Source: a virus (lineage: Duplodnaviria; Caudoviricetes). Taken from it: 30,692 nt of DNA. Location of the stretch: positions 1-30,692 of the IMG/VR virus record IMGVR_UViG_3300025809_000080; one strand, written 5' to 3'. Every line of letters starts with the position of its first letter. Position 1 is the first letter of the stretch. Below, piece after piece: positions 1-20,971 of the stretch. A program made the translations under genes and the position numbers. The notes beneath the pieces were generated by a model, which saw only the letters and a program-made list of their open reading frames with translations, was not told the origin of the DNA and did not search any database.

Positions 1-3000
1 TCAGCATAAGACTTGTATCGCTCTATAGTTTCAAAGTGATTCTCTAAGGTTGTTGTAAAGTCAGCGTTAAGTATAGATACGTCACCCGTCAAATCAACCC
101 TCTCCTTTAATGCAGGGGCTACTTGAGCATTAAACACGCCGTTGAAATCTCCTTCATCTAAAAGCTTAGAGTCAACCTTGGTTTTTATAGTCTGAGTAGG
201 AAAGTAGTTTTCTACATAGCTTAAGTTTACATTGTTTACATCTGAATATACATCATTGGTTTGCTCAAAGTATTCATTGCTTAAATACTCAACCACTTTA
301 TCTGTGAACTCTACAACTTCTTTACCAAGGATGTTTTCAATTTGTTTTAACTTCTCATCAGTAAACCCTTGATTCCTCAACTTTTCTCTTTGCACACTGT
401 TTTTACTAAGAGCGTATATCCGCATTAATTGGTCAGCGTTAAATAACACATTATCTAAAGGTCTCTTTCTAACCTTCTTACCTTTTTCTTTAACCGTTAC
501 GGTTAAGCCATTAAACTTATGTACGCCTGTGGCTAGTTTAGATTGAATGTCCTTGTAATTTTTAATGCCATTTATAGAGCTTGCAATCTCATCCATCTTA
601 GTACGAGTACTCTGTAATCCTTTAGCATACAAACTCTCCATGGCGTTAAGGGATTCGTATACATTCTTAGTAAAGAACTTACCAACCTTGTCCAATCCAT
701 TTGTTAGAGTACCTAAGTGCTTTAAGTTATTAGCTATACCTGTTAAGAATTTACCCGGCTTGGTTAAAGGAAACTCAGACACATAAAGCTTGAAAGCTTT
801 ACCTAGCTGACCACTCATCAACGCATTATATCTTTCATTCTGACGAGCTCTAAGCTGCTCTTCAGTCAGTGGTGAACCGTCCTCATTGTAAAGAGCTGAG
901 TATCCTTGTTGTATATTGGAGTCAGCCTCATCTCTAAGAGCCTTCACCTCAGCCTTCTCAGCCTCAAGTTTTTCTTTTAGTCTAGATATTGATTCAGAAC
1001 GAGCTTCCTTTAAGTCTTTTAATAGTGCTTCAACTTCTTGAACACTCATGTCTTCTACGCCTTTGAATGATTCAAAAGCAATGTAAGCGTCAAGTTGGTT
1101 TTGCTCTTTAACCGTAAGCTTTCCTTCCTTAGATAACACCTCATCAATGTCAGGGAAGAACTTCTTCTCTATTGATTCAGCGTCAAAGTCGCCCTCAAGG
1201 ATTCTCTTAAGAACTCTTTTAGCTGCAGCAAAAAACTGCTGTCCTTGTGCATCTAACCCTTTACCTCTAGCTTTATTACTGTCAGTAATAGCTTTCTTAG
1301 CTTTTTCGGTAACAAACTTTAGAATATCTTTTACAACACCCTTCTTGTACTTTCCTTCTGAGTCGTTGAATACTTTAGCTACATACTCAGTGAAAGCGTC
1401 TACAGACTTAGCTTTAGTCACGTCAGTCTTAGCAAACTTTTTCAATATAGCAGATGCTTGCCTTTGAGTAAGAGTACCTTTCTTAATTAAAGCGTCAACC
1501 TCAGCGGATAAAGCTTGCTGCGTATCAGCTATAAAATTCTTAGCATCCTTCGCAGCCTTAACAGCCTCTTGCAACCTAATCTTTAACAGCTCACTTTCCT
1601 TCAGTGTTACCTTCTTAACATCTCTTATAGCACCGAGCAAACGACTTGGTGTAGGAGCTGTCTTCTCCTTTAAACCAAACTGCTTACGTATATCTCTCAG
1701 TAATTTTTCTCGAACTACATCGGTAGCTGTTTCATAAACACGAGAACCTTTAACATATTCAGCTACGTTGTCCATGATGTCGTTAAACTTAACACCACGT
1801 TTCTTTGATTTTTTAATAATACCCTCTACTTCATTAGCTAATCTATCATACCCCGGCACTAACTCTTCTGTAAGCTTAGGCTTTGGTGCTGCGGTCTTCT
1901 CAGTAGCAACAACCTCAGCAACCAACTCAGGCTTTACGCCCCTCTGTGTAAGCAATGCACTAATAGCTGCGTCTGAGTAACCCAAACCACGAGCCTTCTC
2001 AACGAATGATTTTACCTTGAAGTTAGATAGCTTCGTACCCCTACTAGAAGCGTCTGCCTTTTTAAATGCAGCCGAAGACTTCATCTCAGCTCTCTGTTTT
2101 TTTGTGGTTTTAATTTCCTCACCACTAAGTATGTCAGCTAGAGCAGTTCCTAGAAATTGGTCAAGAGTTAAGCCCTGAACATCTTCAGCCGTTAAGTCTT
2201 TGGATAGTTTAAACTCCTGTTTTATGTAGTTCCATAAACCAAGTAACCACTCAGTAAACTCACTCTTTAAGGCTCCTTGAGTTATAGTCTCACCCTTGTT
2301 ACCGATAAGAATTGCTAAGGCTTCATTGGCTGCTTTAGCTACATCACCATTGAATACCTCAAGTTGCTTCTTGTATACATCTGTTTCCTTTACTAACTCA
2401 ACACCTTTATTGTATATCTCTCTCCCTTTTTCAGTTGTCTGAAGAAAGTCAGTCCATACGTGACCCATCTCATGTATAGCTGTATTAAATATAGCCGACT
2501 CTGAGTTGTGAATATCAGGGTTAACATAAACGTCACCATTAACCGTTACACCGTAAACAACTTCCCCGCCTTTTAAATACTTCTTAACCCCTTCCGAGTT
2601 CATAACCTCGTTAAACTCTTTTGAGTCTACAGACAGGGTTACGCTTGGGAACGCTTTTCTTAAAAAAGAAACAAGCTTATTTACATTGTCAGTATTAGAG
2701 CTAGTTACAGCACCCACATAATCTAGAGAAGGTATACCTATACCAACACCTGCTTGCTGACTTAGTATGCTAGGCGCAGACGCTTTAGCTCCCTTAGACT
2801 CCTTTTGAATAAGTACCTTAAAGCTTTTCTCATACGCTTTAGGATAAGCTTTTTCCATAGGCACAGGATTTTCTAGTACACCAATTGATTTACCCTTCAC
2901 GCCGTAAGGATAGTTTGGATGCGTAGTCTCTAGCACCTCAGGGTTTAAAACGTCAACACCTACCAATGAAATTACACTACCAATAGGCACGTTTCTTAAT

Positions 3001-6000
3001 TCAGGGTCTGTAATTGTGTCAGTTATTACACCGAGGTTTAATTTTGTTTTAGCCTCGCTAGGTTGACCTTTCAATAAAGCTAACACGACAGGCTTCTTTG
3101 ATGCTGACGGAGTTTTAGATTTAGCTCCCGGAGTATTAGGGGTGCTAGATGTAACCTTTCCCATAAGCAAAGTCCTAGCGGGTAGTGAAATTTTCTTAGC
3201 AAACTCACTAGATAAAACTTGGTCAATAGACGTAGCCCCTGAATTAGATACCTGATTTTTAATTCTACGGTAAAGCCCTAGGGTTTTTAACTGCGACTTA
3301 GAAGGAGATTCTATTGAGCTTAATTTTTTAATCTCTAAATCCAACTCACTCTTTAATGCTTTAAGAGCCGCCTTTTTATTCTTAGAGGGTAGTGATTTTA
3401 TATTATCAGACAAAACTCTAAACGTAGCCTCGTTGGAAACTACAGAGCTCTCACCCATCTTAACAATATTCATTGGCACTAATCCATTATACTCAGGGTT
3501 TGCAGCCCACCAATCGTCAAACAAAGACTTGTTATCTTCGTATACCTGCTTAGCTTTTGAGATTATAGTGTCAGCCTCTTTAGTGTCTACGTTAGCCCAA
3601 GCAAAGTTCTCATGCCCCTTAGTTCCGTTAAATCCTACCGCACCCTTAAGGTTGTCAATAGTGTTGCCCGTTTCAGGGTTAACAGTATCACCTGTAGTAA
3701 GTTGGTCTGTTATGTTAAATATAGTTGGGATACCATCTACAACCTCTAATGTTGTAGAGTTTAAGGGTGTGTCCGTTCTTTCATTTAAAGCATTAACATC
3801 TATAGGGCTTGAGGCTTCAAAGCCTAGTTTAACATCTTTATTTGGTGACTCTATCTCGTTAATAACGTCAGTAACCTTAGCTACTTCTGACTCGTCAATC
3901 TGAGATTCTACCTCATCTCTTAATCTAAATTCAGGACCTTTATCAGCTAACTTTCTACTTCTTTTAATTTCTTTTTTATTGAAAATAATCTCAGACCTCA
4001 TCTCACGTTTCTTCTCCTTAATATCTTCTTTGTAGATATCTAGTTGATTTTTTTGGTCTTCCTTGAACTCAGATAACTGCTCTCTTAAATTCTCTAACTC
4101 ACTCAATCTTTGAGTAAGGGTTAGGTCTTTGTTTTCTTTTGTTTCTTTTATTAACTGCTTCAGCTCATCAACACCTGCTTTGGTGTTCCCTTTTTCTATA
4201 GCTATCTCTTCCTGAATGGTTTCAATCTCCCCTTCGTACTCCTCAGTAACATCATCAATCATTTTCTGAACTTCCTCTTGCTCAGTAAGCTCAGGTGCGA
4301 CTTCCTCAGCAACCGTCTCTTCAGGTGCAACTTCCTCAGTAATCACATCATCTAACTCGGTTAAATCTAACTGCTCGTCCGCAATAGCTTTATCTACCTC
4401 GCTCTGTAGCTCCGGAGAGACATCTTGTTCTTGTACATCTTCTTGTGCAACCTCTTCGGTAACTGCTGTGATTTCGGTGTCTCCTTCTCGAACTCCTTCG
4501 CTAACTGCGGCTTGTTCTTGTACATCCACCGTCTCTGCGCTTGGCTCTTGAATGGCATCTGTTTCTTCTGTTAATGGGTTCTCTTGGAGATTCTTTATCT
4601 CCTCTCTTATGACTTTAGCTCTATCCTTAGCTACCTGATTGTCTTTACCTTTAAGGTTATTTAACTCTACCTGAAGCTCTGTGATAGCGTCAAGCGTAGG
4701 TTGGTTCATCTCAGGGTCAGCCTCAGATATATCTCTCTTAGTTACAGCCTCTTGGTATTTCTTTGTGTACTCAGCCTGTAGCACATCGTCATTAACAATG
4801 TTAACCTCAGCCTTAATTAAATCGTTAGGGTTAGCCTCTCTAATAAACCTAGCCATGTCAGGCCCTGATACTGCAGCATTCTTATCTTTACCATTTATGT
4901 GGTACTTAGGGGCCTTGTATAGACCATAACCCACAGTTAATGGAGCTGTGGCCGTACCTGCAATACCTTCAAAACCAATCTCAGCAACGTCCATCTCCTG
5001 ACCCGCAACCAATCTACCTGCAACCTCACCCGCAGAACCACCTACAGCTTCAACAGTACCACCTGCGGTAGCACCTAAAAGTTTTCGACCTGTAGATTTT
5101 ACAACGCTAGTAGTAAGCTTACCTGCAAGACCGCCCGTGATAGCATCAATAGTACCAATTGTAAGACCACGCCCTACAGCTTTAAAGCGAATCTCATCCA
5201 TCGCCTCCTTGTCTCCCAATACAGCTCTTATATTCTCAGTGGTCATAGGCTTGTCACCAAGCTGCTCTTGCAGTAGCTCAGCATAAGTAAGGCCTGTCTC
5301 AAGTGTAGTACCCGCCATACCCATAGCACCTATTAAAGCACCGGCAGGTCCACCAACTAAAGCACCACCCGCTGCACCACTTGCTGCGCCCGCAAGGACT
5401 GCAGGGGTAGCCATAGCGCTAACTGACGATACAAATAACTGTGGTATAACGGTAGGGTTCTTAGCCACACCTTTTACAAAGCCTAGCCAACCGCCACCAT
5501 TCTCTTGATAAATTTTTTGGAAATCACGCATCTCATCAGACTCACCCATAGACTGCATGCGCTTTTGTGCAGCAATAAATTCTTGGATGTCATCATCTGA
5601 AACGTCAGAGCCTTTTGCAAACAACTCTAAAGCCTCGTCAACAGAACCACCTTGGGCTTGACCTGCTGCTCCTGCTCTATAGATGTCACCAAACAAATCG
5701 GTAAGTTCGTTCTTACCGAACACCCTCTCAATGGCGGTAGACTTCTCTAATGAAATCGGTTTATCACCCTGATACTGTCTACTTGGTTCTGCATCCTGTA
5801 CAACAGTATATTCAGAAGGTTCTTCAAGTGTGATAGACTCCGAAGAAATAACCTCTTCCTGCTGCTGTGGTATAGTAGAATCCGTAACGACCTGCTGAGA
5901 AACTGAAACCGAATCTTCTTTTTTTTTTACTCCTACTAAAACAGAGAAATCTTCAAAAGACTTTTGGTATCCCTTCTCTTGCACGTAACCGTAGTTATCG

Positions 6001-6110
6001 GCTAATACGTTTTCATTACTTTGTAGTAACGCATTAAACTCTTCAATAGATTTTTGATAACCTTTAGATACAGCTCTATCGTATAAATCTTTTAATACCT
6101 GCTCGTTCAT
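1..6110 (-). CDS. Giant internal virion (ejection/cargo) polyvalent protein with zincin-like HExxH motif; >2036 aa, 3' end beyond the window
   Basis: Translated by hand from ATG 6110 (MNEQVLKDLYDRAVSKGYQ...) and open to the window edge (...ERYKSYA). Absent from the ORF track because it has no stop. Contains a Gly/Ala zipper at ~5310-5400, an acidic linker at ~4200-4570, and HEMGH at 2460-2474 with a distal Glu (NEALA) at 2322-2324. Confidence 0.9.
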   Translation of the reverse strand, partial: MNEQVLKDLYDRAVSKGYQKSIEEFNALLQSNENVLADNYGYVQEKGYQKSFEDFSVLVGVKKKEDSVSVSQQVVTDSTIPQQQEEVISSESITLEEPSEYTVVQDAEPSRQYQGDKPISLEKSTAIERVFGKNELTDLFGDIYRAGAAGQAQGGSVDEALELFAKGSDVSDDDIQEFIAAQKRMQSMGESDEMRDFQKIYQENGGGWLGFVKGVAKNPTVIPQLFVSSVSAMATPAVLAGAASGAAGGALVGGPAGALIGAMGMAGTTLETGLTYAELLQEQLGDKPMTTENIRAVLGDKEAMDEIRFKAVGRGLTIGTIDAITGGLAGKLTTSVVKSTGRKLLGATAGGTVEAVGGSAGEVAGRLVAGQEMDVAEIGFEGIAGTATAPLTVGYGLYKAPKYHINGKDKNAAVSGPDMARFIREANPNDLIKAEVNIVNDDVLQAEYTKKYQEAVTKRDISEADPEMNQPTLDAITELQVELNNLKGKDNQVAKDRAKVIREEIKNLQENPLTEETDAIQEPSAETVDVQEQAAVSEGVREGDTEITAVTEEVAQEDVQEQDVSPELQSEVDKAIADEQLDLTELDDVITEEVAPEETVAEEVAPELTEQEEVQKMIDDVTEEYEGEIETIQEEIAIEKGNTKAGVDELKQLIKETKENKDLTLTQRLSELENLREQLSEFKEDQKNQLDIYKEDIKEKKREMRSEIIFNKKEIKRSRKLADKGPEFRLRDEVESQIDESEVAKVTDVINEIESPNKDVKLGFEASSPIDVNALNERTDTPLNSTTLEVVDGIPTIFNITDQLTTGDTVNPETGNTIDNLKGAVGFNGTKGHENFAWANVDTKEADTIISKAKQVYEDNKSLFDDWWAANPEYNGLVPMNIVKMGESSVVSNEATFRVLSDNIKSLPSKNKKAALKALKSELDLEIKKLSSIESPSKSQLKTLGLYRRIKNQVSNSGATSIDQVLSSEFAKKISLPARTLLMGKVTSSTPNTPGAKSKTPSASKKPVVLALLKGQPSEAKTKLNLGVITDTITDPELRNVPIGSVISLVGVDVLNPEVLETTHPNYPYGVKGKSIGVLENPVPMEKAYPKAYEKSFKVLIQKESKGAKASAPSILSQQAGVGIGIPSLDYVGAVTSSNTDNVNKLVSFLRKAFPSVTLSVDSKEFNEVMNSEGVKKYLKGGEVVYGVTVNGDVYVNPDIHNSESAIFNTAIHEMGHVWTDFLQTTEKGREIYNKGVELVKETDVYKKQLEVFNGDVAKAANEALAILIGNKGETITQGALKSEFTEWLLGLWNYIKQEFKLSKDLTAEDVQGLTLDQFLGTALADILSGEEIKTTKKQRAEMKSSAAFKKADASSRGTKLSNFKVKSFVEKARGLGYSDAAISALLTQRGVKPELVAEVVATEKTAAPKPKLTEELVPGYDRLANEVEGIIKKSKKRGVKFNDIMDNVAEYVKGSRVYETATDVVREKLLRDIRKQFGLKEKTAPTPSRLLGAIRDVKKVTLKESELLKIRLQEAVKAAKDAKNFIADTQQALSAEVDALIKKGTLTQRQASAILKKFAKTDVTKAKSVDAFTEYVAKVFNDSEGKYKKGVVKDILKFVTEKAKKAITDSNKARGKGLDAQGQQFFAAAKRVLKRILEGDFDAESIEKKFFPDIDEVLSKEGKLTVKEQNQLDAYIAFESFKGVEDMSVQEVEALLKDLKEARSESISRLKEKLEAEKAEVKALRDEADSNIQQGYSALYNEDGSPLTEEQLRARQNERYNALMSGQLGKAFKLYVSEFPLTKPGKFLTGIANNLKHLGTLTNGLDKVGKFFTKNVYESLNAMESLYAKGLQSTRTKMDEIASSINGIKNYKDIQSKLATGVHKFNGLTVTVKEKGKKVRKRPLDNVLFNADQLMRIYALSKNSVQREKLRNQGFTDEKLKQIENILGKEVVEFTDKVVEYLSNEYFEQTNDVYSDVNNVNLSYVENYFPTQTIKTKVDSKLLDEGDFNGVFNAQVAPALKERVDLTGDVSILNADFTTTLENHFETIERYKSYA
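4291..4344. repeat. 24-bp direct repeat with 30-bp period, encoding EEVAPE twice
   Basis: tcaggtgcgacttcctcagcaacc (4291-4314) versus tcaggtgcaacttcctcagtaatc (4321-4344), 21/24 identical. Confidence 0.8.
4394..4558 (-). CDS. Overprinted 54-aa basic protein in the +1 frame of the giant gene (MPFKSQAQRRWMYKNKPQLAKEFEKETPKSQQLPKRLHKKMYKNKMSLRSYRAR)
   Basis: ATG 4558 to TAG 4394-4396, purine-rich leader, 17 K/R. The N-terminus matches my recollection of small free-standing phage proteins starting MPFKSxxQRRWMY. Confidence 0.7.
   Translation of the reverse strand: MPFKSQAQRRWMYKNKPQLAKEFEKETPKSQQLPKRLHKKMYKNKMSLRSYRAR
5824..5928 (-). other. A10 slippery tract (5919-5928) and -1-frame extension RRFGFSFSAGRYGFYYTTAAGRGYFFGVYHT*
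   Basis: GTA AAA AAA AAA GAA in frame 0. The -1 frame stays open to TGA 5824-5826, has no ATG of its own, and has 11 aromatic plus 6 Gly residues and no acidic residues in 31 aa. Confidence 0.5.
5928..6107 (-). repeat. Two 30-aa tandem repeats at the N-terminus of the giant protein
   Basis: NEQVLKDLYDRAVSKGYQKSIEEFNALLQS / NENVLADNYGYVQEKGYQKSFEDFSVLVGV. Confidence 0.8.
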
Positions 6111-6125
6111 TATGTTTATCTTTTA

Positions 6126-7901
6126 CTATAAGTTACTGTAGTCTACTTCCTTGGTTGGTGATTTTTTTAGAGGCCTACCTCGGCTATCTGTATTTTTACT
6201 TGAATGAGTAGATGTAATTTTGTATTTTGACTCAAAGCCTTCGGTGTCTCCCTTTCTAACTGCATCAAATATTTCTTGCAAGTCGTTTAGGTACGCTCTA
6301 GTATTTTCTATATCGTAACCTACCTCAATATTAAAGTCTCCTATTTTCAATAAAATATTTTTAGTTCCGGAAACTTCTTCAGTTGAGGTCCTTAGGTTAG
6401 AGAAGTTTCTAGATAGTAACTCGTTAGTCAACTCAACAGCTTTTTCAGTATCTTGACCACTAAAAGCTTCATCTACCTTTATATTACTATTATCTTCTAA
6501 TATAAAGAAATCTTGCAATATAGGTGTTACTTTCTCTATCACCTTACCTCTTTCACCCCTACCCGGTTCAATGTTAATCTCAAGCTCAGCAAATCCTTCT
6601 GATGGTATATTAATATTTCTAGGCTTTACCTTATCCGAAAGGTCAGCAGCTAATTGTTGAGATGATTTTCCTGTAATATCAATCGTCTCAAGTCGTGTAC
6701 CACCCTCTTTATCTTCGTACTCAATAAGTATAGAATCCTCTTTTTTGTCTATAGATAGAATTATATCTTGACCCTTTTTTGCATCCTTGTTATACCTTGT
6801 GATTAAGCGCTCAGCCGACTCCGAAAAATTATCACCACCTAATACTATAACATCTTTAATATCTTTCTTGTAATTAGCAGTCCTATCTTGAATACTAGCA
6901 ACCTCAATCTCACTTTTAGTTACCTTAGGTGCGGGTGTTTCTTTACGACCTAATCTACCAAGTATTGAATCTTTAAGAACCTTAGAGGCTTCCTTCTCCT
7001 GTGCCTCTGTTAAGTCAGGAACTAATACACCACTGCCCGGATTCTGAGGGTTTGGTATCATCATTATAACACCATCCTTACCTCTATCTTTCTCATCCGT
7101 AGAGAACGTGTACTCTTTATCTGTATTATCTGCCAACACACTCGCAGCCGTATAACTACCTGTCTTTAATTTAGCAGCAACATCTTTATCAATTGCTTCT
7201 TTAAATTTAGGGTTTTCTAATTTTGATGTAACTGAACCTCCACTTGCAAGAACTTGTTGAAAGTCTTCCTTATAAGTGTCAAGCGTTTTACTTGCCCAAT
7301 CCTTTACATCAACCCTATCAATCTCTTGGTTGACACCACTCTTCAAACTAAACACTGAAGCTATGTCTGTATTAGACGGAACGCCGTCTACTACCTTAGC
7401 CACTAAAACCTCACCGGTCTCAGGGTCTACAATAATCTGTGATTTAGCGGGGTTAGCAAAATCTTGCAGCCTACCATTATTCCATATCTCAACCTGAGAC
7501 GCGTTGGTGTTAGCCCTCTGCATGTTCTTCTCAAAGTTGGTGTTGAAATTTTTAGCAACCTCAAACAGGTCAGTTGTCCCTTGCTCAAGGTTAGCTTTCT
7601 GAGCATAGTAATCCCTAAGCTTAAGCTCTCCGCTTTTAAGCTTCTGCTCCTGCATCAATCTTGTTTTTGTTGCAGCTTCAGCAAAAGAGGCCATCCTATC
7701 GTTAGCTGATTGGTTTTGACCCTGAGGTGTGTCCTGCACTGTGCGTAAATACTTCTTAGTATCCTCTGCAATCTCAGACTTTAAATCCTCTCTACGATTT
7801 CTTTCTTCAGATAATCGAGTAGAAAAATCTTTACTTATAGCACCCCAATCTACAGTTACTTTGTCAGGGCGTTTATCAAACTTATAATACGACTTTGCCA
7901 T
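6126..7901 (-). CDS. Internal virion/ejection protein, 591 aa
   Basis: Long helical, charged ORF lying between the small pilot-like gene and the giant cargo gene, the usual podovirus ejection-protein order. Confidence 0.7.
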   Translation of the reverse strand: MAKSYYKFDKRPDKVTVDWGAISKDFSTRLSEERNRREDLKSEIAEDTKKYLRTVQDTPQGQNQSANDRMASFAEAATKTRLMQEQKLKSGELKLRDYYAQKANLEQGTTDLFEVAKNFNTNFEKNMQRANTNASQVEIWNNGRLQDFANPAKSQIIVDPETGEVLVAKVVDGVPSNTDIASVFSLKSGVNQEIDRVDVKDWASKTLDTYKEDFQQVLASGGSVTSKLENPKFKEAIDKDVAAKLKTGSYTAASVLADNTDKEYTFSTDEKDRGKDGVIMMIPNPQNPGSGVLVPDLTEAQEKEASKVLKDSILGRLGRKETPAPKVTKSEIEVASIQDRTANYKKDIKDVIVLGGDNFSESAERLITRYNKDAKKGQDIILSIDKKEDSILIEYEDKEGGTRLETIDITGKSSQQLAADLSDKVKPRNINIPSEGFAELEINIEPGRGERGKVIEKVTPILQDFFILEDNSNIKVDEAFSGQDTEKAVELTNELLSRNFSNLRTSTEEVSGTKNILLKIGDFNIEVGYDIENTRAYLNDLQEIFDAVRKGDTEGFESKYKITSTHSSKNTDSRGRPLKKSPTKEVDYSNL

Positions 7902-7903
7902 TA

Positions 7904-8512
7904 TTATCTAAATTTACCTTGAGCACCCTTTACGCGTCCTTGATTAGTTCCTGTTACACCTGCAAGTTTTTGCTGAGGGTATAACTCAGACATCTCGTAC
8001 AACCCCATACCTGTATCAACTAATCCTTGGGTTGCGGACTGCATAGAGGTAGCTTCTAAATTAGCAGCTTCAGCAGCAGCTATACCCGCCCCTTCAGCCT
8101 GAGCTAAATCAAGCTCAGCCCTTTTTGTAGCCAAAACTTTTTCTTCATCAGCAACAGCTTTCTCTAAAGATTCAATGTCTTGGGTTTGTTGAGTAGTAAT
8201 TGCTTGCTCTGCCTTCTGAGCTTGACCAAGAACTCTACCTGCAGTAGCTGCGGCTAGCCTAGGGTCACCCTCTCGGCCTACTTCAATTGCTTGAGCAGCT
8301 TGCTGAGCAAGTGCCTCACGCTGTCTCTCATACGGTTCTTTACTTATGCTAAGCTCCTCTAAGTAGTTGACTTCTAGTTGTTCTCTTGCCTCAGCAAAAG
8401 CTTCGTCAGCTAGATTTTGAGCTTGTTCCCTTTCCTTTCTTGCTTTAGAGGCTTGCGAGAAAGACATTCCCGCTGAAACTAAACCTGACATAGCAGCTAA
8501 TTCTACTCCCAT
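7904..8512 (-). CDS. Small internal virion/pilot (ejection) protein, 202 aa
   Basis: Hydrophobic Gly/Ala N-terminus (MGVELAAMSGLVSAGMSF) followed by an Ala/Gln/Glu coiled coil. Positional and compositional analogue of T7 gp14 / P22 gp7. Confidence 0.7.
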   Translation of the reverse strand: MGVELAAMSGLVSAGMSFSQASKARKEREQAQNLADEAFAEAREQLEVNYLEELSISKEPYERQREALAQQAAQAIEVGREGDPRLAAATAGRVLGQAQKAEQAITTQQTQDIESLEKAVADEEKVLATKRAELDLAQAEGAGIAAAEAANLEATSMQSATQGLVDTGMGLYEMSELYPQQKLAGVTGTNQGRVKGAQGKFR

Positions 8513-8514
8513 AG

Positions 8515-8925
8515 TTATATTTTTAAAAGTAATTCTGTTTGATTTTTAGCCCCAACACTAAATCCCTTACCCACAAAATGATTTACGAGTAAAGGGTTGT
8601 TGTTGTTCGCAAAAATATATTTCTTATCCATGCTCTGCGCTACACCAATCAAGCTATCTAGTAAATAGTTAATAGCGTTATTGCGGTGTGGCTTCTTTCT
8701 ATAATCCTTATTGGATATAATCCAATCTATCCATGCTATCTTTGAGTTGGTGTCATACAAAAAACCTGCGCATATAGGTGTATCCTCATCCCAAATCATT
8801 AACCCCGACAATCCATCCTCAGGAAGAAACTCCTTGCTTGGAGCTTGACCTCCCCAATCGTTCCACCACCCTACTAAGGTGTTGTCATAATCTTCGGCTC
8901 GTAGTGCTTTTGTGCTAAATATCAT
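8515..8925 (-). CDS. Putative GNAT-fold acetyltransferase-like protein, 136 aa
   Basis: PICAGFLY strand, WIISNKDYRK (motif A-like) and a C-terminal 'F..KGF' motif. Sits just before the ejection genes, like T7 gp13. Confidence 0.65.
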   Translation of the reverse strand: MIFSTKALRAEDYDNTLVGWWNDWGGQAPSKEFLPEDGLSGLMIWDEDTPICAGFLYDTNSKIAWIDWIISNKDYRKKPHRNNAINYLLDSLIGVAQSMDKKYIFANNNNPLLVNHFVGKGFSVGAKNQTELLLKI

Positions 8926-17029: not shown

Positions 17030-17056
17030 AAAAAAAAAAGAGCCCCTATGGAGCTC
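17030..17056 (-). terminator. Intrinsic terminator after the fibre/decoration cluster
   Basis: GAGCTCC-ATA-GGGGCTC followed by T10 on the minus strand. Confidence 0.85.
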
Positions 17057-20943: not shown

Positions 20944-20971
20944 AAAAAAAAAAGGAAGCATTTCTGCCTCC
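20944..20971 (-). terminator. Intrinsic terminator after the 250-aa gene
   Basis: GGAGGCA-GAAA-TGCTTCC (GNRA tetraloop) followed by T10. Confidence 0.9.

Follow-up and report, generated by a model that had tools for sequence, protein, structure and literature searches.

A conserved run of ten adenines at the head of a giant phage virion gene and the short aromatic-glycine isoform that it may encode

Several described systems use a change of reading frame to obtain two proteins from one gene. The dnaX gene of Thermus thermophilus relies on transcriptional slippage at a run of at least nine A/T in a long open reading frame (ORF), which gives a shorter product with a shared N-terminus; polymerase slippage is reported to set in at nine A/T, and the heptamers G_GGA_AAG and A_AAA_AAG are listed there as prone to shifting (PMC5009743). 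The same source describes the lambda-type gpG/gpGT genes, in which two products share an N-terminal binding domain within a morphogenesis operon. Genes 39/40 of the podovirus Alteromonas phage vB_AspP-H4/4, which include an internal virion protein gene, contain a putative -1 frameshift (PMC5658483). In this work, we consider a viral contig of 30,692 nucleotides (nt), IMGVR_UViG_3300025809_000080; the whole 30.7-kb contig is referred to as the window. Its minus strand encodes a giant virion-operon gene with a run of ten adenines (A10) near its start, and an earlier note, made from the letters of the window, had proposed that a -1 shift at this run yields a short isoform with an aromatic-glycine tail.

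What the earlier note had described in the window is exact. The A10 is located at 5919-5928 on the minus strand, within GTA AAA AAA AAA GAA, just after two N-terminal repeats of 30 amino acids (residues 2-31 and 32-61, 15/30 identical), and it corresponds to the longest T-run (T10) on the plus strand of the window. The heptamer A_AAA_AAA is in phase at this site, in agreement with the X_XXY_YYZ pattern. Past the preceding in-frame stop, the -1 frame has no ATG and hence no start of its own; it reads 31 residues, of which 11 are aromatic (6 F, 5 Y), 6 are G and 4 are R, with no D or E, and ends with a stop at 5824-5826. The frame-0 codons TCG, ACG and TCG indeed become FG, YG and FG in this frame, and the shifted product, estimated at about 95 residues, computes to 95. 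The run reads A10 without any indel in the contigs of six public sequencing runs, which indicates that it is not an assembly slip of the window contig. The combination of an A10 and an aromatic-Gly frame is far beyond chance.

To collect relatives without reference to the tail, the acetyltransferase-like gene upstream was used as an anchor; it returned 56 loci, mostly 40-50% identical, 19 of which end ahead of the giant gene. The remaining 37 reach the giant start (one is identical to the window), and 32 of these are distinct. Note that a first, pattern-based locus set is biased by its pattern and is kept out of the main counts. The A-run is found at the giant start in all 37 loci, as A10 in 36 and as an in-frame A11 in one, 133-274 nt past the ATG. 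On the coding strand of the unbiased loci (651,828 nt), runs of at least ten A occur 37 times, every time at the giant slip site. Lysines in the run are written as AAA 92 times and as AAG twice, versus 1791 and 528 times elsewhere in the same giant genes. After the run, the -1 frame stays open over 18-49 codons in 32/32 distinct loci, an opening of at least 18 codons being found at 13% of 19,966 control positions, and the open length of the +1 frame varies from 4 to 76 codons.

The -1 tail has a conserved motif, R-YG[IF]x[IF]GRWF[IF]G. For tails of the compact type (25 distinct loci, a count that excludes five long-loop loci and two missed by the pattern), identity is 0.63 in the -1 frame, 0.40 in frame 0 and 0.36 in the +1 frame, and the synonymous share of single-base codon differences is 0.70, 0.20 and 0.05, respectively. 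Variation is concentrated at the third positions of the -1 codons (entropy 1.15 versus 0.75 and 0.50). Three invariant tail residues (G, F and G) are written with several codons, GGA, GGT, GGC or GGG for Gly and TTC or TTT for Phe; Tyr is likewise TAC or TAT. The expectation that homologues would keep the A-run and the aromatic/Gly pattern over a poorly conserved frame 0 is thus borne out for the compact type, and neither of the contrary outcomes that had been named, runs broken by AAG and early stops in the -1 frame, is observed in these loci.

A second line of evidence is obtained from relatives that lack the A-run. When tail codons are used in a motif-only search, 120 loci (118 distinct) are returned out of about 420 stretches estimated to match; relative to a long ORF, the motif is read in the -1 frame. 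Upstream of it, 66 of the distinct loci carry A9-12, with the -1 frame unbroken from run to motif in 66/66, and 52 do not. In the latter class, A_AAG occurs in phase in 43 loci versus 14 and 5 in the other phases (downstream controls 6/50, 9/50 and 3/31); strict heptamers are present in 35, and G_GGA_AAG in 23. A hairpin begins 3-7 nt past the G_GGA_AAG heptamer in 21/23, and the mean folding z score 3' of the heptamer is -1.5, with 8/21 below -2 versus 2/21 in controls. Five loci of this class (L117, L120, L177, L204 and L206) carry no heptamer by the rule used, and some show G_GAT_TTT. L204, from the viral set, was rejected as a true motif locus because it looks like chance, as do 5-6 of 15 motif matches in genome contigs. 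Between heptamer and motif, the -1 frame often reads CxC/RC, a pattern that may simply reflect the GC-rich hairpin. At least some members of the class belong to the same giant family: over the short stretch compared, 13/51 giants without an A-run match A-run giants by BLAST, and five fall in the commonest N-terminal domain cluster.

That two unrelated slip signals feed one peptide is difficult to account for if selection acts on the DNA and not on the peptide itself. This bears on the alternative that the shift does no more than reduce how much giant protein is made, the tail being a degradation tag or the conserved element a DNA or RNA motif such as a recombination or pause signal. Domain swaps that fall right at the cassette would suit that alternative, as would the finding that the two frames of the window's own subtype are constrained alike (see below); however, the gathering of variation at -1 third positions and the entry of two signals into the same frame count against it, and we consider it very unlikely, although a degron role is still compatible with the data. 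From these sequence comparisons, we conclude that the -1 isoform is very likely real and selected.

Some observations weigh against this conclusion. The pairwise identity and synonymy counts given above are not independent and are inflated by shared ancestry. Moreover, the window's own tail belongs to a long-loop subtype, to which a profile of the compact motif gives no match. In the third-strand block of this subtype (15 distinct loci), identity is 0.41 in both the -1 frame and frame 0, and the synonymous share is 0.37 versus 0.39; these values were scored on the pattern-biased set, solely in the block outside the pattern. The Gly of that block is kept in 15/15 loci.

How the frame is changed at the A10 is a separate problem. 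The longest upstream runs are bimodal in length with a gap at 8 (7 loci with a run of 6, 7 with 7, 1 with 8, 16 with 9, 47 with 10, 2 with 11 and 1 with 12), and the A-runs are found in three phases. No hairpin was detected downstream of the window A10 (z +1.1 and +1.8; pseudoknots not modelled), and a Shine-Dalgarno-like motif lies upstream in 1/32 distinct A-run loci. Together with the threshold of nine A/T, these observations favour slippage of RNA polymerase, with one A added, over a ribosomal shift at the window A10, a mechanism that we regard as probable. The conserved coding homopolymer of at least nine A/T that characterises dnaX-type slippage is present in the window and in 37/37 relatives, and an alternative frame under coding selection, as expected for recoding, is also present, with constraint equal to that of frame 0 in the window's subtype.

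The opposite possibility is that the A10 shift is ribosomal, a -1 shift on A_AAA_AAA as in the G_GGA_AAG relatives, which would leave the product unchanged. An in-frame A_AAA_AAA is present in every run phase, the run ends in AAG in 2/32 loci, and selection is seen only on the -1 product, all of which would fit. Downstream folds at A-run sites are also slightly more stable than in controls (class mean z -0.45; 9/65 versus 2/65 with z below -2), an observation that leaves some weight to ribosomal shifting. No length variant of the run was found in the contigs from the six public runs that span the site, all A10 (two further runs miss it), contigs being uninformative on slippage. However, a ribosomal shift would need just seven A's, whereas the runs are 9-12 long with a gap at 8, and the stimulator expected of a programmed -1 ribosomal frameshift is lacking at the window site, in contrast to the G_GGA_AAG relatives. 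We therefore consider a ribosomal shift at the A10 the less probable of the two, at roughly one chance in three or somewhat below.

Both isoforms begin with the same two-repeat domain, which is far more variable than the tail: 155 sequences form 36 domain clusters against a single tail type, and domain swaps occur right at the cassette of N-terminal domain and slip site. Each domain type pairs with its own C-terminal motif on the protein encoded upstream, [VI]DYS-like for the window type and GELD, GGxR, DAFGNP, KIFKAQ or DPLG for others. In 95 of 167 loci, namely those in clusters of at least three with enough sequence, comparison of the final 10 residues of the upstream protein gives a similarity of 17.1 for the same domain type and 9.5 for different types, while residues -35 to -25 give just 9.8 versus 9.0. 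This cluster-wise co-variation suggests that the N-terminal domain is quite likely a swappable domain-peptide coupler predicted to join the giant to the preceding protein. Against this, the co-variation may come partly from the co-transfer of adjacent DNA.

The same domain occurs outside virion operons. Membrane proteins that contain it are among the 150 isoform relatives listed. One of them, P0104, has two helices (10-28 and 305-323) flanking at least two domain types, whose identity to phage domains is 54% and 48%; a relative on L228 (2802-3509) matches its membrane part at 81% over residues 1-110, carries a different domain type (58%), and adjoins a D5-like primase and DUF6371. P0070 is also among the membrane proteins with arrays of phage N-terminal domains. 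No P0104 relative was found in 401 genomes searched or in viral contigs, and three such membrane proteins were seen in all. These arrays are candidate anti-phage decoys on a mobile element; if so, they would support the coupler idea and make superinfection exclusion a serious rival for the role of the isoform.

We propose the following mechanism as the best explanation of the data as a whole, with a probability of roughly 0.45. The A10 slip would divert part of the output of the giant gene into the -1 frame, producing the 95-residue isoform. Through its N-terminal domain, the isoform would bind the C-terminal peptide of the virion protein encoded upstream, and through the conserved aromatic-Gly beta-tail a constant partner; it would amount to a coupler that carries an invariant tail in place of the cargo. 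The isoform could then act as an adaptor in the loading or ejection of the injected proteins. A late-operon product made in a fixed ratio to the giant would be in keeping with an adaptor that attaches the chain to the constant partner during loading or ejection; this role, at the procapsid and portal or at the envelope, is put forward tentatively.

An AlphaFold2 model of a database copy of the isoform has four helices and three strands (67-72, 75-81 and 87-93), with a mean predicted local distance difference test score (pLDDT) of 74 and a predicted template modelling score of 0.44; a shallower alignment lowers the mean pLDDT to 65. Several results disfavour the adaptor proposal. The tail has no match in PDB sequences, Pfam or PHROGs, and no tail partner was found. 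No fold match was obtained either (best Z 4.2); BFVD yields only kin giants, and ESM Atlas matches are under 0.9. In phage phi18:3, gp122, a short ORF with the N-terminal domain, bears no mark of detection by tandem mass spectrometry (MS/MS), whereas the giant counterpart gp123 does, which argues that the isoform is not an abundant virion component. Some database proteins have the -1 tail at their end (P0008 and P0010; 23/23 profile matches); they were rejected as proof of expression because short records with a +1-type tail are about as common, as homopolymer noise in assemblies predicts.

Two other roles have been weighed against the adaptor. In superinfection exclusion, the cationic aromatic tail would anchor the domain to the inner membrane of the infected cell; there the domain would capture the cognate C-terminal peptide of related phages that enter later, and the frameshift would tie specificity to the phage's own domain type. 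The contrast of 36 domain clusters with one tail would be accounted for, and the membrane proteins with the same domains (P0104 and its L228 relative) point in this direction; but the late-operon position better suits assembly, the tail has no transmembrane segment (maximum hydropathy 0.29), and the membrane proteins are as rare as stated above. We regard this role as unlikely. Still less likely is a proposal that extends the idea of the earlier note, in which the isoform, packaged into the virion, would leave it first and help to breach the envelope as a membrane-active peptide, or would serve in lysis. The Arg-rich, aromatic and acid-free tail with its predicted beta-meander (pLDDT about 74), which presumably resembles cationic beta-hairpin peptides, would suit such a function, and so would its end 3-10 residues past WFxG in 116/118 motif loci. 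However, the strict Y, G, W, F and G positions fit a defined binding site better than bulk lipid, and the lack of an MS/MS mark on gp122 again stands against a packaged peptide.

A broader scheme would unite these elements. The ejection proteins of this large phage group would be chained by interchangeable domain-peptide pairs; recoding, by slippage or by the ribosome interchangeably, would supply a membrane-docked copy of the coupler to block kin phages; and arrays of couplers would have been captured by mobile elements of the hosts and placed in membrane proteins, where they would act as anti-phage decoys. Counting the nested ORF described next, one gene would have three selected products. 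Taken as a whole, this scheme is improbable at present.

The overprinted ORF that had been claimed at 4394-4558 holds up, with its own ATG and conserved copies in giant genes. There are 17 distinct copies inside giant genes, that of the elemo phages included, and the synonymous share is 0.66 in the +1 frame versus 0.20 in the host frame, which speaks for coding selection; these figures are raised because the copies were found by their first residues. Among long-enough unbiased giants, 8/22 contain it within the part covered. Its PHROG match is weak (E 0.01). One giant homologue, P0002, equals the window giant for about 585 residues and then diverges completely, so that the body is swapped just beyond the nested ORF.

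The features of the window are listed in Table 1. The minus strand encodes the terminase, the portal and several virion genes, and the final four genes are, in order, those for a 136-residue acetyltransferase-like protein, a 202-residue virion protein, a 591-residue protein and the giant ORF, which opens with an ATG at 6110 and stays open for 2036 codons up to the contig end. Two intergenic A10 runs on the plus strand (17030-17039 and 20944-20953), which are T-runs on the coding strand, are likely terminator tails.

Table 1. Coordinates of the features discussed, in positions of the window
Feature	Position	Strand	Match or support
Giant virion-operon gene, >2036 aa, cut by window end	3..6110	-	phrog_32588 (E 4e-75); positional counterpart phi18:3 gp123
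N-terminal two-repeat helical domain, aa 1-60, common to both isoforms; predicted binder of the C-terminal peptide of the upstream protein	5931..6110	-	15/30 repeat identity; four helices in AlphaFold2 model; co-variation
A10 slip site (GTA AAA AAA AAA GAA)	5919..5928	-	37/37 relatives
Tail in the -1 frame (31 aa and stop): cationic, aromatic-Gly, three predicted beta-strands	5824..5919	-	
Nested +1-frame ORF, 54 aa, own ATG (MPFKSQAQRRWMY...)	4394..4558	-	17 distinct copies
Upstream 591-aa protein; last ~10 codons (6129-6158, ...VDYSNL) encode the peptide predicted to be bound by the N-terminal domain	6126..7901	-	
202-aa virion protein, first of three putative ejection proteins	7904..8512	-	phrog_13764 virion structural protein
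136-aa acetyltransferase-like gene, unbiased anchor for collecting relatives	8515..8925	-	phrog_17252; homologue annotated as N-terminal acetyltransferase subunit

An identical gene order is found in cultured phages of Flavobacteriia: Cellulophaga phi13:2, phi18:3 and phi19:3, Tenacibaculum Gundel_1 (Pachyviridae), the Flavobacterium elemo phages and Maribacter phage Panino. The likeness of the window phage to Pachyviridae rests on this synteny and on 32-36% identity of one gene. All three large genes of the cassette are annotated in phi18:3 as found by MS/MS, including gp123, annotated as structural. The layout, in which three virion genes of increasing size come after an acetyltransferase-like gene, is presumably that of the ejection cassettes of P22 (gp14-gp7-gp20-gp16) and T7 (gp13-16), to which no sequence match was found, no search aimed at them having been made; on this assumption, the giant gene is likely the last and largest ejected protein. 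We know of no comparable isoform for the P22 and T7 cassettes.

The GenBank records of phi13:2, phi18:3, phi19:3 and Panino (L086, L088, L090 and L091) read A9 and annotate the giant gene as split. These split genes were rejected as proof that recoding is essential, since the sequencing methods used undercall homopolymers. Panino was sequenced by Nanopore alone (PMC11590407). The Cellulophaga phages were reportedly sequenced by 454; both methods are prone to such undercalls. The A9 in the four records is thus probably a homopolymer undercall, and the conserved A-run slip site accounts for the split annotation.

The isoform would be a conserved protein invisible to gene callers in a common aquatic phage group, given the number of stretches estimated to match the strict motif pattern, and the site is a natural case where two recoding mechanisms appear to substitute for each other. 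In addition, the co-variation of domain and peptide offers a testable rule for how ejection proteins link, and a decoy defence is a possibility raised by the membrane domain arrays. For testing, phage-host pairs are available in culture, namely those of Gundel_1, elemo, phi18:3 and Panino.

No published report of a frameshift in the giant gene was found in the open literature, the original Cellulophaga and elemo papers and supplements (proteomic tables) aside, and the word "frameshift" does not occur in the main texts of PMC5512222 and PMC8776804. Both kinds of recoding are established; what appears to be undescribed is their occurrence at the start of an ejection-type gene, the exchange of one for the other, and the tail family. 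Like phage polyvalent proteins (PMC5512222), the giants are very large proteins encoded beside virion genes, and two homologues, P0005 and P0050, carry an ART-PolyVal domain; the 2036 residues of the giant that lie within the window gave no Pfam match. The proposal for vB_AspP-H4/4 (PMC5658483) also concerns a virion gene of a podovirus, but there the shift would yield a long protein from an endolysin gene, rather than a short isoform with a conserved tail. The system resembles gpG/gpGT in the in-phase G_GGA_AAG of the relatives, in two products that share an N-terminal domain (here predicted to bind) and in its place in a morphogenesis operon; no sequence likeness to gpG/gpGT was found. It differs in that gpG/gpGT lies between the major tail and tape-measure genes and has the longer product as the shifted one, whereas the operon here is of the podovirus type and lacks a tape-measure gene, and it is the short product that would arise by shifting, the unshifted one having 2000-3900 residues. 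Finally, the run of at least nine A/T in a long ORF and the shorter product with a shared N-terminus are those of dnaX, where, however, both shifted frames stop at once and merely truncate the protein (PMC5009743); in this phage virion gene, the -1 frame adds a tail of 18-49 residues that appears to be under coding selection.

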